The notes: generated by a model from the letters alone, not told the origin. DNA of 52,112 bases from Patescibacteria group bacterium (GCA_035289165.1 DATDYA010000012.1:1-52112); one strand, 5' to 3'; shown: positions 14,704 through 19,825, counted from the stretch's first letter. Translations and numbers: made by a program.

Positions 14704-15030
14704 TTTTTTGTATAACAATTAACTAGAGAGAAAGCACTTCTTAATGCTTTCGTTGTACGCTCGACCGATTAGTACGCCTCGGCTCAACATATTACTATGC
14801 TTATACCTAGCGCCTATCAACCTCGTAGTCTACAAGGAGTCTATAACGAATGTTAATCTTGAAGACGGCTTCACGCTTAGATGCTTTCAGCGTTTATCCG
14901 TGCCGAACATAGCTACCCAGCAATGCCCCTGATGGAACAACTGGTACACTAGAGGTTCGTCCATTCCGGTCCTCTCGTACTAGGAATGAGCCTTCTCAAC
15001 ATTCTACGCCCGCAACAGATAGGAGACCGA

Positions 15031-15347
15031 CAATTATGTTACATTCTCTTTCGAGACGGCATGTCATTTCTGACATACTCTGCATGTCGCCATGCAGTTC
15101 GGACTATATCTTATCCCAACTCGGGATTCTAGCGTATAGTCTCTGAGGATTCTAGCTATTTTATAAAAATAGCTAGTCTTTCCTGCTGATTGTCTGCACT
15201 CAACACATTTTCACTAGTGGAACTTACCACTTAGTAGTGTGAGATTCACAAGCCTCACTCCTAAATGAGACTTCCAGAGTTTCCAGCATTTGGCTAGATT
15301 TAAGGACAGCATGGTCTCTTTTTTGGCTAATATTAGCCAAACTACCT
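15031..15347 (-). mobile_element. group I intron (ORF-less) in 23S domain V, after the residue I align to E. coli U2604
   Basis: The exon sequence GTCGTGAGACAGT|TCGGTCTCCTATC is split. The upstream exon ends in U and the intron ends in G (complement of c15031). The core motif AAGATATAGTCC is present (RC of ggactatatctt at about 15100). Confidence 0.75.
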
Positions 15348-15440
15348 ACTGTCTCACGACGTTCTGAACCCAGCTCGCGTACCGCTTTAATTGGCGAACA
15401 GCCAAACCCTTGGGAGCTTCTCCACCCCCAGGATGCGATG

Positions 15441-15715
15441 CACATTATTCCATTATTACTAATGGTGCAGACTATATCTTCATCCTTCAAAAAACGAAGG
15501 AGTCCGGCGTATTATAGTGGGCATAAATTTCTTTTTGCAAAGAGTGCCCGACTATCTAGGTCAAATGACCTCAGTCGTTACGGGGTCAATCTCAATAAAA
15601 TTGAGACGACTTCCCACGGTATTGTCCTACCCAAAATGGGTTACATTGAAATAGGAGTTCACCGTTATTAGCCAGATTATTCGTTCCAGATTACTCTGGA
15701 AGCGACCCTAATTTG
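15441..15715 (-). mobile_element. group I intron (ORF-less) in the 23S peptidyl-transferase centre, after about U2511
   Basis: Splits GTCGGCT|CATCGCATCC. The upstream exon ends in U and the terminal intron G is the complement of c15441. Core AAGATATAGTCTGC is present (RC at about 15467). Confidence 0.75.
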
Positions 15716-15726
15716 AGCCGACATCG

Positions 15727-16611
15727 CTGTCGGAACTATTCCACGATTTCTCATGGCGCAGACTATATCTTCATCTTGCTCTGGATCGTAGCTGTTTACT
15801 TTTTTAACAGCATAATCTCAGTTTTATTTGCAAGCGTCGGCGTATTGCGGTTTGTGTTAAAAACCGCCTCCCCTTTCGGGTCAGTCGTTACGGGGTCAAG
15901 CAATCTTATATTTCATGGATGGAATTATGTATTGTTCGAGATTAAATTTTAATCTACTATAACTTTTCGATGGGATATAAATACAATAGGAATCTTGGTG
16001 CTTTTGAATATTAGAGTCTATCCCTAGCTTCAAAAGGCTTTTCCTAATTGTGCTCTGTTCGTATTTATCGTACCCTTGAGTATTTAATCTCAAAGCTCGA
16101 CAATCGTTCCTTTTATATCCGTCATCCATAATCCAAACTGCTAATATCATCCAATTAATTATCCTTGGAAGTTTTTTTGGAATTACTTTCTTACCTTTAT
16201 TGTAGAATAACTTGTAATAATTCTTCAGAACGGAGGAAGCTCTAGTCCTCACTATTACATGAGAATAAATTTTTCCGGTCCTTCTGTCTAAACGATCCTT
16301 TTCTACAACACTTGGAAAAAACTCTTTCAAATAACTTGCCTTCCATTCTACATATTCTTTTTGTTTAGAAGAATGATCGGCTATTAATCGATAATTTTTT
16401 CCATTAAGCTCCAAAAAACCATCACCCAGCAAAGTGCCGAGTATGATATTTCGCTGAAATACATCTTGCCGACTTCCCACGGTATTGCCGTGCAAATTCG
16501 CTTCCATAAATTAAATTTATGTAAGAATTATACCATGAATTTGCTTACGGTTCCACCGTTATAAGCCGAATTTTTGGTACAGTGTTTCTACTGTAGCACC
16601 CCGATGTGTTA
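15727..16611 (-). mobile_element. group I intron with a LAGLIDADG homing-endonuclease ORF, after about U2500
   Basis: Splits GGCACCT|CGATGTCGGCT. The terminal G is the complement of c15727. Core AAGATATAGTCTGC is present (RC at about 15757). The ORF sits in a peripheral loop between the conserved elements cagtcgttacggggtc and ttcccacggtatt. Confidence 0.85.
15896..16507 (-). CDS. double-motif LAGLIDADG homing endonuclease (intron-encoded)
   Basis: LGTLLGDGFLE and AVWIMDDGYK motifs. 203 aa, located inside the group I intron. Confidence 0.85.
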   Translation of the reverse strand: MEANLHGNTVGSRQDVFQRNIILGTLLGDGFLELNGKNYRLIADHSSKQKEYVEWKASYLKEFFPSVVEKDRLDRRTGKIYSHVIVRTRASSVLKNYYKLFYNKGKKVIPKKLPRIINWMILAVWIMDDGYKRNDCRALRLNTQGYDKYEQSTIRKSLLKLGIDSNIQKHQDSYCIYIPSKSYSRLKFNLEQYIIPSMKYKIA

Positions 16612-17137
16612 AGGTGCCAAACCTGGCCGTCTATATGGACTATCGGGCCAGATCAGCCTGTTATCCCCGGAGTAGCTTTTATCCGTTGATCTTCCACCTT
16701 CCTATGAAGAGTGGTCGGTTCACTTACTTCTGCTTTCGCAACTGCTCGGGTTGTAGCCCTTGCAGTAAAGCCAGCTTTTGCGTATGCACGTCCAGCTCGA
16801 TTTCCATCCGAGCTAAGCTGACCTTTGTAAACGCCTCCGTTACATTTTGGGAGGCAACCGCCCCAGTTAAACTACCCATCAGCCACTGTCTTCTCTTCCG
16901 GATAACGGAAGAAAATTAGGAATAAAATTAGGTAAGGGTGGTGTCTCATTGGCGCCTTGCGGCTCCCACCTACGCTGAACATACCTAACCTTATCCCAAT
17001 AGCAAATTGTAGTAAAGCTTCACGGGGTCTTTTCGTCTAGTTGCGGGTAAGAGGCATCTTCACCTCTCTTGCAATTTCACCGAGTCCTTCGTTGAGACAG
17101 TCCTCATATCGTTATGCCATTCGTGCAGGTCGGAACT

Positions 17138-17397
17138 CCATTTGTTATCATCTTGTTACCAAGATGTTCAGACTATACCTTCATCTTATTAATCTTTAAT
17201 TAATAAGAGCTGACGTGTTAGCCAATTTTATTGGCTCTCGCCTTTCGGCTCAGTCGTTACGGGTCTCTCAAAAAGTGAGAGTTCCCACGGTATTACCCGT
17301 TGTTGCCAACGGCGCTCCACCGTTATGAGTCAGTGTGCTTGTGTCATGTCACCACGACACTCGGGCAAGTTATCATCCGACCAGAATGATTTAGTTC
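17138..17397 (-). mobile_element. group I intron (ORF-less), after about U1951; the boundary at 17138 is uncertain by 1 nt
   Basis: Splits CTTGTCGGGT|(G)AGTTCCGACCTGCACGAATGG. Core AAGGTATAGTCTGAAC is present (RC at about 17168). Shares the cagtcgttacggg...ttcccacggtatt elements with the introns at 15441 and 15727. Confidence 0.7.
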
Positions 17398-17417
17398 ACC
17401 CGACAAGGAATTTCGCT

Positions 17418-17682
17418 CAGCGCTTCCTTTTAATGGCGTTGGACTATATCTTCACCCTATTCTTAAGGGGCATAGCGTTTAGTCTCTGAGGGGATCGACT
17501 TTCAATCGATCTTCCCTGCTGATTGCCTTCTTCAGGTTCCCAGCATATAGCTATGATTGGATTATTCTTCACATTACTGTGAAGTAAGGCAGCTTTTAAA
17601 TGGCTATTTTTTTACTCTGCATATTCATGACTGTGTTCTATATCCGTCCCAATCCTAGTGAATTCAATTTCTTGGATCCACT
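17418..17682 (-). mobile_element. group I intron (ORF-less), after about U1931
   Basis: Splits CCGTCCTAAGGT|AGCGAAATTCC. The terminal G is the complement of c17418. Core AAGATATAGTCC is present (RC at about 17441). Shares tagtctctgagg and cttccctgctgattg blocks with the intron at 15031. Confidence 0.75.
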
Positions 17683-19825
17683 ACCTTAGGACGGTTATAG
17701 TTACCGCCGGCGTTCATCAGCGCTTCGGTTCAGAGCTTGCACTCCTCCCCTTAACGTTCTGACACTGGCCAGGCATCACCCCCTATACTTCAGCTTACGC
17801 TTTTGCAGGGAGCTGTGTTTTTGGTAAACAGTCGCATGAGGTCTTTTGTTGTAACCCTGATAAATCAGGGTGGGCCTTATCCCGAAGTTACGGCCGCTGT
17901 ATTGCAGAGTTCCTTAACGAAGGTTCTCTCGTACGCCTTGGTCTACTCGACCTATCCACCTGTGTCGGTTTAAGTACGGTTATTTGCCGCTTAACGGTTC
18001 CAACCTTTTCTAGGCACCTCATCCCTTTAAGTTGACTCTACCCGGAGGCTTTGTCTTCATCTTGCGAAACGTGCATATTCGAAACACGCTTAAAGTTTAA
18101 AGATGCGCAGTTGAAACCAAACGGCAAACAGTGCAGGAATATTAACCTGCTCGTCCATCGACTACCCCGCCTGACGGCGGACTCACCTTAGGACCGACTA
18201 ACCCTGGGTCGATTCTCGTTGCCCAGGAAACCTTAGATTTTCGGCGCCAGGGATTCTCACCCTGGTTTTTGCTACTTATGCCTGCATTCTCACTTCCTAA
18301 CACTCCACCATGACTCACGTCTATGGCTTCAGTGCGTTAGGAACGTTCCTCTACCACCCAGCGTGGGGCGAACCCCACTCTGAATTCGCAGCTTCGGTAC
18401 CATATTTTAGCCCCGGTACATTTTCGGCGCGAAAACTCTTGACCAGTGAGCTGTTACGCTTTCTTTAAAGGATGGCTGCTTCTAAGCCAACCTCCTGGTT
18501 GTATGAGAATTAACACCACCTTTTACACTTAATATGGATTTAGGGACCTTAGCTAGCGATCTGGGCTGTTTCCCTTTTGAAAACGGCGCTTAGCCGTCGC
18601 TTTCTGACTCCTGTGTTTTGATCTCCGGCATTCGGAGTTTGATTGAAAACGGTATCCCGAAGGACCCAGTTCTCATCCAGTGCTCTACCACCGGAGGGAT
18701 CACACAAGGCTAGCCCTAGAGCTATTTCGAGGAAAACCAGCTATTACCGAGTTCGATTAGAATTTCTCTCCTATCCACAACTCATCCCCGCATGTTGCAC
18801 GGTGCGTGGGTTCGGACCTCCTCTCAACTTTCGTTGAGATTCATCCTGGTCATGGATTGCTCACCCGGTTTCGGGTTATGTGCATGCCACCTAGTCGCCC
18901 GTTAAGACTCGCTTTCGCTCTGCCTTCGGACCAGAGGCCCTTAAGCAAGCGACATACACATACTCGCAGGCTCATTCTTCAATAGGAATACAGTCACCCT
19001 TACGGGCTCCTGCTCTTTGTAGGCACACGGTTTCAGATACTATTTCATCGCCCTCTCCGGGCTGCTTTTCACCTTTCCCTCGTGGTACTTGTCCACTATC
19101 GATCACCAAATGTATTTAGCCTTAGACCATAGTCGGCCCAGGTTCAGACGGAATTTCACGAGTTCCGCCCTACTCAAGAGCATAAGCCATGATAAATTAA
19201 CTCCTTTCACATACGGGACTATTACCCTCTGTGGTTGTTCTTTCCAGAACATTCTACTAGGAAAGCTAATTGGTCACCTGACTGCACAGAAAGTCAGCGC
19301 TTATGTCTTACAACACCTTATAAGCAACGGTCTGCACCTTTAATTTGCAAATCATAAATTAATCCGAAGACTAACCACTTTTTGCAAAAACACTGTATAA
19401 GGTTTGGGCTTTTCCCTGTTCGCTCGCCACTACTGAGGGAATCTCTGCGATTTCTTCTCCTCTGGCTACTGAGATGTTTCACTTCGCCAGGTCTTCTCCA
19501 TACACCTATGTATTCAGTGTACAGTACTGCCTCGCGGCAGTGGGTTACCCCATTAGGACATTCCCGGATCAAAGGTTGCTTGGGACCTCCCCGAGACTTT
19601 TCGCACCCTGCGACGTCCTTCTTCGTCATTTGGTGTCTAGGCATCCACCGTGCGCCCTTGTTGAAATTGCGCACAACGAAAACACTAAATTGTGCTTTCG
19701 TTTTGTATATATTATATACCTACATTACCCTAGTTAATTGTCAAAGTACTTTCCGTTACTTCCAACACTCTCATTCGATCTCAAGCGAACTCTTTTTAAA
19801 GCCCTCGCTTCAGACCGAATTAATT

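Follow-up and report, generated by a model that had tools for sequence, protein, structure and literature searches.

A 23S rRNA gene with five group I introns and a single LAGLIDADG endonuclease gene in a 52-kb bacterial contig

The interrupted 23S rRNA gene

The window analysed here is the whole of a stretch of DNA of 52,112 nucleotides (nt; DATDYA010000012.1:1-52112), in which a 23S rRNA gene occupies positions 14748-19682 on the minus strand (Rfam LSU_rRNA_bacteria, 1924 bits, with the Rfam model starting at 19671), reading 5' to 3' from 19682 to 14748. It is the only 23S rRNA gene found within the window, a 5S rRNA gene lies directly downstream of it (14588-14694, minus strand; Rfam 5S_rRNA, 81.3 bits), and it is interrupted by five inserts, whose identification as group I introns is supported by several lines of evidence set out below. 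One of the five contains an open reading frame (ORF) for a LAGLIDADG homing endonuclease. A first-pass annotation had described a 23S rRNA gene with five group I introns at these coordinates without stating its strand, and the Rfam matches to LSU_rRNA_bacteria and, five times over, to Intron_gpI agree with that description.

Excising the inserts at the boundaries given by the first-pass annotation (265, 260, 885, 275 and 317 nt in the direction of transcription, 2002 nt in total) leaves 2933 nt, the figure it had estimated, or 2934 nt once the 3' end of the second insert is corrected to 17139 as argued below. A MAFFT alignment matches the spliced gene with Escherichia coli rrlB over its whole length and places the junctions after E. 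coli U1931, U1951, U2500, U2511 and U2604; hence, the numbering of the first-pass annotation is exact. Within the 12 bases on either side of each junction, the only differences from E. coli are isolated substitutions at three of the sites and, at the second junction, a gap of one base. All five sites fall, as had also been claimed, in the functional core of the molecule, namely the region of helices 69 to 71 (H69-H71) and the peptidyl-transferase centre. The span that Rfam itself reports for the 23S match (16489-19671 for model positions 1-2925) was discarded as an artefact of the large introns, and the MAFFT alignment against E. coli was used in its place.

The same gene, or parts of it, is present in six other contigs (L002-L007, from independent European Nucleotide Archive (ENA) and Joint Genome Institute (JGI) metagenome assemblies), which are 99.5-100% identical and have their introns at the same places. 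Because the window is of metagenomic origin and assemblers can be misled by mobile elements in several copies, the five-insert gene might conceivably reflect a chimeric assembly or be a dead rRNA pseudogene; its recurrence in these six contigs, the intactness of the exons, the agreement of the peptidyl-transferase-centre sequence with E. coli at the junctions and the position of the 5S rRNA gene directly after it render this explanation hardly credible. Three of the contigs (L003, L005 and L006) differ from 14748-19682 of the window at 24, 7 and 5 positions, respectively, confined to short patches in variable exon helices, with introns that are 100% identical. We considered and rejected an argument for recent intron spread from these strain variants, as they amount to only two or three clustered events.

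Architecture of the five introns

A sensitive Rfam scan covering 14400-19900 returned exactly five matches to Intron_gpI (RF00028; gathering score 50), one inside each insert. This is the Infernal/Rfam check that the first-pass annotation had proposed, and it recovers a group I core in all five inserts. At all five junctions the upstream exon ends in U and the insert ends in G, as had been reported. The motif AAGRTATAGTC, which comprises the J8/7 joining segment and the 3' strand of P7 (the P numbers denoting the paired regions of group I introns), occurs five times in the window, once in each insert and nowhere else, against an expectation of 0.02, and none of 100 shuffles reached five occurrences. 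It ends 24, 33, 34, 29 and 71 nt before the intron 3' end in introns 1-5, so that the earlier description of one such core per insert stands and its range of 24-70 nt becomes 24-71 nt. A scripted search for internal guides, requiring at least 5 bp of pairing to the end of the upstream exon and a G facing its terminal U, yields one P1 candidate per intron: GCCUUA, GCCCGA, GGGUGCUA, GGUCG and GCUGUC in introns 1-5. P10 extends over 3, 5, 6, 1 and 4 bp in the same order and is contiguous with P1 in introns 1, 2 and 3; many group I introns can do without P10. The guide sequences vary between sites exactly as the exons vary, and thus constitute covariation across paralogous introns.

Intron 1 (17418-17682, on the minus strand like all features of the gene) is inserted at large-subunit (LSU) site L1931, is 265 nt long, lacks an ORF, belongs to a class without the P7.1/P7.2 hairpins and scores 57.7 bits against Intron_gpI. 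Its P1 pairs UAAGGU with GCCUUA (17585-17590) and includes the U.G pair, its P10 pairs AGC with GCU (17591-17593), and its core motif lies at 17442-17452. The exon between introns 1 and 2 is a mere 20 nt long (17398-17417, E. coli 1932-1951; AGCGAAAUUCCUUGUCGGGU), is identical to E. coli, and provides AGC to the P10 of intron 1 and UCGGGU to the P1 of intron 2. Intron 2 (17139-17397; site L1951) is an IA-like intron of 259 nt without an ORF (32.3 bits, E 1.7e-5), in which P2, P3, P4, P6, P7, P8 and P9 could be located along with a P1 of UCGGGU/GCCCGA (17361-17366), a P10 of GAGUU/AACUU (17367-17371) and the core motif at 17171-17181.

The boundaries of the other four inserts are as the first-pass annotation gave them, but it put the 3' end of intron 2 one base too far downstream, at 17138: comparison of the junctions makes 17139 the most likely end, with an intron of 259 nt. 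Homologous L1951 introns at other loci terminate in ...G|AAGUUCC, the window and locus L029 read ...AUG|GAGUUCC, and the intron-less relatives L019, L062 and L080 bear GGGTGAGTTCC. With an end at 17138 the H71 loop would be one base shorter than in E. coli, whereas an end at 17139 would keep the 7-nt loop, place a G at position 1952 and give a contiguous 5-bp P10 adjoining P1. The ligated second junction is accordingly predicted to read GGGUGAGUU if the 3' end is 17139 and GGGUAGUU if it is 17138.

Intron 3 (15727-16611; site L2500; 885 nt), likewise IA-like, houses the endonuclease ORF in its P6 loop and scores only 22.0 bits (E 0.021) against Intron_gpI because the ORF splits the core; stripped of the ORF, it matches intron 4 and 44 other introns helix for helix in the alignment described below. 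Its P1, UGGCACCU/GGGUGCUA (16594-16601), is contiguous with a 6-bp P10 of CGAUGU/ACAUCG (16602-16607), and its core motif lies at 15761-15771. It is followed by a micro-exon of 11 nt (15716-15726, E. coli 2501-2511; CGAUGUCGGCU), which is the sole copy of these 11 universally conserved bases. The micro-exon is split exactly between its two neighbours, bases 1-6 (CGAUGU) forming P10 with the guide of intron 3 and bases 7-11 (CGGCU) forming P1 with that of intron 4, and therefore both ribozymes can hold it simultaneously. Intron 4 (15441-15715; site L2511; 275 nt), also IA-like and without an ORF (47.6 bits, E 4.6e-10), has a P1 of CGGCU/GGUCG (15703-15707), a P10 of only 1 bp and the core motif at 15470-15480; among its homologues the guide alternates between GGUCG and GGCCG, each able to pair with the exon. 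Intron 5 (15031-15347; site L2604; 317 nt, without an ORF) belongs to the same class as intron 1 and scores highest, at 70.6 bits, with a P1 of GACAGU/GCUGUC (15305-15310), a P10 of GGUC/GACC (15313-15316) after a 2-nt mismatch, and the core motif at 15102-15112.

The five introns fall into two ribozyme classes. Introns 1 and 5 have core blocks in common at 82-95% identity and are without hairpins between P7 and the 3' strand of P3 (P3'). Introns 2, 3 and 4 have in common the blocks AAUACCGUGGGAA and CCGUAACGACU and carry two extra hairpins (P7.1/P7.2) between the 5' strand of P7 and the 3' strand of P3, the first of these being, for example, GCCGAAAGGC, CCCGAAAGGG or GGUCAUUUGACC. We describe these three introns as IA-like, with the subgroup judged from architecture alone. 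The IA-type phage introns of T4 td and Twort also have P7.1/P7.2, but they reside in phage protein genes and introns 2-4 in an rRNA gene; two extra hairpins between P7 and P3' have been noted for the Twort and L2593 introns (Haugen et al., 2007; PMC1995217). A recent duplication among introns 2-4 was considered and rejected, as their mutual identity is only 49-59%.

Homologues of the introns were found by endonuclease searches of genome and metagenome collections, cut at the conserved exon junctions and freed of their ORF bodies, to give an alignment of 46 distinct L1951, L2500 and L2511 introns, comprising introns 2-4 of the window and 43 homologues. In this alignment the columns assigned to P2, P3, P4, P6, P7 and P9 form standard pairs in 38-46 of the 42-46 sequences available per position; between 4 and 6 kinds of standard pair are seen at each position of P2, P3 and P9, and P4 and P7 are nearly invariant. 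Introns 2, 3 (without its ORF) and 4 of the window each form all these helices, and P8 could be located in each as well. The covariation of the helices therefore speaks for a ribozyme fold under selection in the three introns that score below the Rfam threshold.

Taken together, the covariance-model matches, the P1/P10 pairing, the terminal G, the restoration of the exons and the covariation among homologues support the identification of the five inserts as group I introns in a 23S rRNA gene. We estimate at roughly 0.9 the probability that this is an apparently functional 23S rRNA gene whose five introns are spliced as standard group I introns and whose endonuclease in intron 3 presumably drives homing. 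Several points weigh against this interpretation. Three of the five Rfam matches (introns 2, 3 and 4) lie below the family gathering score, with introns 5 and 1 above it. In intron 1 an unusually long stretch of 92 nt separates the 5' splice site from the guide, and a 9-bp helix of the intron with the upstream exon competes with P1. The P1 of intron 4 is short, with two wobble pairs among its 5 bp, and its P10 is essentially absent. The host is placed indirectly, through relatives of the endonuclease in Shapirobacteria, Berkelbacteria, Saccharimonadales and Wolfebacteria assemblies and in one Omnitrophota assembly. Finally, the anatomy, pairings, homology and covariation are direct observations, and splicing in this organism is what we infer from them.

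The inserts could also be read as intervening sequences (IVS) of the RNase III type that are excised without ligation of the exons, leaving a fragmented but working 23S rRNA. Fragmenting IVS do occur in bacterial 23S rRNA genes, and it has been suggested that such elements may exist also in the candidate phyla radiation (CPR) (Tsurumaki et al., 2024; PMC11270868). However, all five inserts have a group I core, a P1 with the U.G pair and a terminal G, most of them have a P10 that would align the exons for ligation, and the covariation of the core helices argues for selection on ribozyme structure. Moreover, the sites lie in the single-stranded, universally conserved peptidyl-transferase centre and not at the helix tips usual for IVS, and a free 11-nt fragment (2501-2511) would need to be retained in the ribosome. 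We consider excision without ligation highly improbable.

Under standard group I splicing, each intron would fold into its ribozyme core, and P1 would arise from pairing of the internal guide with the final 5-8 bases of the exon, whose terminal U would face a G. An external guanosine would then attack the 5' splice site, the terminal G of the intron would dock in the P7 pocket, and the freed exon would attack the 3' splice site. The predicted result is a continuous 23S rRNA of ~2934 nt, in which the H69-H71 region and the peptidyl-transferase centre would match the universal sequence. That insertions in CPR rRNA genes are lost from the transcripts has been described (Brown et al., 2015, as cited in Tsurumaki et al., 2024; PMC11270868). 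With two introns 11 nt apart in the peptidyl-transferase centre, the gene offers a system for testing splicing order.

The helix that competes with P1 in intron 1 is formed by nt 44-52 of the intron (17631-17639; UUGGGACGG), which are complementary to the upstream exon at 17686-17694 (CCGUCCUAA), corresponding to E. coli 1920-1928, which takes in the 3' strand of H69 and extends past it. A z of -3.3 was obtained for the minimum-free-energy fold, and the helix overlaps the canonical P1 by 3 nt. The L1931 introns of L063, L065 and L075 retain a UGGGAC/UAGGAC motif resembling that of intron 1. This complementarity may represent an alternative exon-intron helix.

The endonuclease and its placement

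The ORF at 15896-16507 (minus strand) encodes a protein of 203 amino acids (aa) that matches Pfam LAGLIDADG_2 (PF03161; E 8.8e-36) over profile positions 1-167 of 168, and its two LAGLIDADG motifs, LLGDG at residue 26 and IMDDG at residue 126, have their acidic residues intact. It is the only real ORF within any of the five introns and the only intron ORF matching a homing endonuclease, as the first-pass annotation had it. Its sequence relatives in the PDB are 6x1j (E 1.2e-13) and I-SceI (1r7m; E 3e-9). The alignment with I-SceI (E about 3e-9) spans nearly the full length, although the similarity is low and host and site differ; I-SceI, from the omega intron of the yeast mitochondrial LSU gene, likewise pairs two LAGLIDADG motifs with residence in a group I intron of the peptidyl-transferase region. 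The omega intron is located at about L2449 and intron 3 of the window at L2500. As an I-SceI-like monomeric two-motif endonuclease, the window enzyme presumably cuts intron-less alleles near 2500-2511, which would lead to homing at the DNA level. The four introns without an ORF would be inherited vertically or be carried along by co-conversion.

The ORF is closely interwoven with the ribozyme. It occupies the P6 loop, with its opening codons specified by the P5/P4'/P6 strands and its stop codon within the 3' strand of P6, and the conserved N-terminus GNTVGS of the enzyme coincides with the core block AAUACCGUGGGAAGUC. Two blocks flanking the ORF body are shared with intron 4: the 18-nt block upstream of it (16470-16487, minus strand) is 100% identical to 15607-15624 of intron 4 (P4' and the 5' strand of P6), and the 19-nt block at the stop codon (15881-15899, minus strand) is 100% identical to 15571-15589 of intron 4 (the 3' strand of P6, J6/7 and the 5' strand of P7). 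The two blocks are separated by 570 nt in intron 3 and by 17 nt in intron 4.

The interruption of the intron 3 core by this 570-nt ORF body, whose ends overlap P5/P4'/P6 and the 3' strand of P6, together with the weak P1 and nearly absent P10 of intron 4, lends some weight to the view that the inserts are group I introns of which one or more (intron 4, or intron 3, whose core is split) need a protein helper, for instance a LAGLIDADG maturase, or are partly degenerate. Certain LAGLIDADG proteins are indeed maturases (I-AniI, as cited in PMC1995217). Nevertheless, the helices from P2 to P9 are all intact in introns 2-4 of the window, the matched I-SceI-type enzymes are deposited as endonucleases, and the weak P10 is common to the whole L2511 intron family and is therefore a family trait and not decay. 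I-SceI is not known to act as a maturase. A requirement for a helper, or partial degeneracy, thus appears unlikely.

The 41 endonucleases of the L2500 and L2511 sites form two clades in a neighbour-joining tree, with 100/100 bootstrap support, one comprising solo-L2500 enzymes and the other enzymes of L2511 introns. The window endonuclease resides in an L2500 intron yet falls within the L2511 clade, with a mean identity of 51% to the solo-L2511 enzymes and 37% to the solo-L2500 enzymes. The pair of L2500 and L2511 introns recurs in five related loci, which differ in the placement of the ORF: L009 and L030 resemble the window in having an L2511-clade ORF in the L2500 intron, L010 and L031 have the ORF in the L2511 intron, and L038 has one endonuclease of each clade (the observation also covers L008). 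Intron 3 itself is nearer to the L2500 introns in its 5' half (identity 0.68 versus 0.57), and its 3' half does not discriminate between the lineages (0.55 to each). The clade of the window enzyme, the flanking blocks and the varied placement of the ORF in the other twin-intron loci suggest that ORFs may have been relocated repeatedly between introns 11 bp apart.

As to how this came about, we tentatively propose, as a possibility and with less than even confidence, that gene conversion on the identical 18- and 19-nt core blocks brought an L2511-lineage endonuclease into the L2500 intron next to it, and that a single cut near 2500-2511 would co-convert both introns as a cassette, possibly with the other three. 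Both insertion sites lie within one ~20-bp target, and therefore one cut would convert both introns as a cassette; the other three introns lie 104-569 bp from the L2500/L2511 target in the intron-less allele. If true, cassette co-conversion would explain the persistence of four ORF-less introns alongside one enzyme. The exons of 20 and 11 nt, along with an ORF that may have changed its host intron, make this gene a concrete system for studying how introns without an ORF are maintained.

A further feature of the L2500 introns concerns their 3' ends. Among the 31 distinct L2500 introns of related loci, ten have A as their last base (..GUA or ..AUA) in place of G, directly before the exon CGATGTCGGCT; they include those of L009 (5892-6707), L010 (43-348), L031 (4555-4886), L050, L051/L054, L058, L064, L070 and L082. 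The boundary cannot be slid in these introns, and their P7 G-C pair is unchanged; the L2500 intron of the window ends in G. A terminal A would be uncommon for a natural group I intron.

Place among known rRNA introns, host and surroundings

Introns in rRNA genes are known in CPR bacteria, as the first-pass annotation had stated: of 348 CPR 23S rRNA genes, 82% were found to contain insertions (minimum length 100 bp); these number 968 altogether, of which 433 are group I introns by Rfam, 222 of these 433 being without an annotated ORF (Tsurumaki et al., 2024; PMC11270868). The same survey, taking 16S and 23S rRNA genes together, records up to 16 insertions per gene, and a total insertion length of up to 5,750 bp per 23S rRNA gene. 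The 23S insertion sites that it lists include 1917, 1931, 1952, 2593, 2604 and 2657; its text names neither 2500 nor 2511, which presumably fall among its sites 23IS9-11. The window gene resembles these CPR genes in the clustering of several introns around the H69-H71 region and the peptidyl-transferase centre (sites 1931, 1952 and 2604 being listed), in the absence of an ORF from many introns (about half in CPR), in the presence of LAGLIDADG enzymes in some, and in the single 23S rRNA gene, which is usual for CPR genomes. It differs in the type of enzyme, which is a two-motif LAGLIDADG_2 protein, whereas LAGLIDADG_1 is the commonest in the survey. CPR-type loci yielded matching homologues for four of the five introns, those at L1931, L1951, L2500 and L2511; inserts at L2604 occur in other loci too.

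Our own comparison sample consists of 28 distinct 23S stretches covering positions 1850-2650 and is biased towards genes with a related endonuclease. Within it the core motif occurs six times in one gene, five times in three, four times in seven and three times in eight, and the extra 23S sequence amounts to between 1.4 and 5.5 kb (median near 2.45 kb), so that the 2.0 kb of the window is below the median. The Rfam scan applied to the window, with its five Intron_gpI matches, gives seven in L045, seven in L091 and five in L037. The characterization of five introns with one endonuclease as an extreme case in the first-pass annotation is not sustained by these counts or by the figures of the CPR survey. 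The record cited among cultivated bacteria is three introns, in Synechococcus sp. C9 (PMC1995217), which the five of the window exceed, but the CPR is the proper reference class. The window gene is one more example within the known CPR range and nothing different in kind, multiple introns of this sort being normal for groundwater bacteria of the CPR type, and has small weight as a discovery, multi-intron 23S rRNA genes being already documented as a CPR hallmark. Its use is as a fully annotated example, with base-level boundaries for five introns and two ribozyme classes in one gene.

More specific parallels are offered by two other bacteria (Haugen et al., 2007; PMC1995217). Synechococcus sp. 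C9 has LSU introns at L1917, L1931 and L2593, of which L1931 is common with the window, and in both organisms endonuclease ORFs reach from a peripheral loop into the ribozyme core. In contrast, each of its three introns has its own single-motif LAGLIDADG gene, and the five introns of the window have one two-motif ORF among them. The L1951 intron of Coxiella burnetii occupies the same site as intron 2, but measures 720 nt with an ORF for a LAGLIDADG protein of 157 aa, against 259 nt without an ORF in the window. Sites 2500, 2511 and 2604 are not in the compilation of that study.

The host is probably a CPR bacterium, because the relatives of the endonuclease are found almost entirely in CPR assemblies; the identity of the 23S rRNA gene to named loci, at only 67-79%, is too low to place it. 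An Rfam scan found no 16S rRNA gene in the 52-kb window, which suggests that the rRNA genes are unlinked. The 23S and 5S rRNA genes form an isolated pair, and upstream of it (region 19683-20500) lie protein-coding genes, namely an ORF for an Smr-domain protein and a POR_N fragment. The latter, a 121-aa ORF upstream of the 23S rRNA gene (20889-21254, minus strand), matches only the first half of the POR_N domain and may be a fragment of a split or duplicated gene; a full gene of the pyruvate:ferredoxin oxidoreductase alpha type (10561-11598, minus strand; 345 aa) lies downstream of the 23S rRNA gene together with a TPP_enzyme_C subunit.

The exons of the 23S rRNA gene show a few departures in length from E. 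coli. Some 123 extra bases (33 + 90 nt) are present near E. coli 276-289 (about 19263-19398 in the window, minus strand); this stretch has no intron match in Rfam, folds no better than shuffled sequence (z -0.32) and is probably an expansion segment. Deletions of 46, 21, 22 and 17 nt follow E. coli positions 1405, 1725, 2127 and 2787, respectively. Farther away in the window, 43076-46558 (minus strand) encodes a class II (B12-dependent) ribonucleotide reductase of 1160 aa, whose barrel domain matches in two stretches and which carries a C-terminal TSCPD domain.

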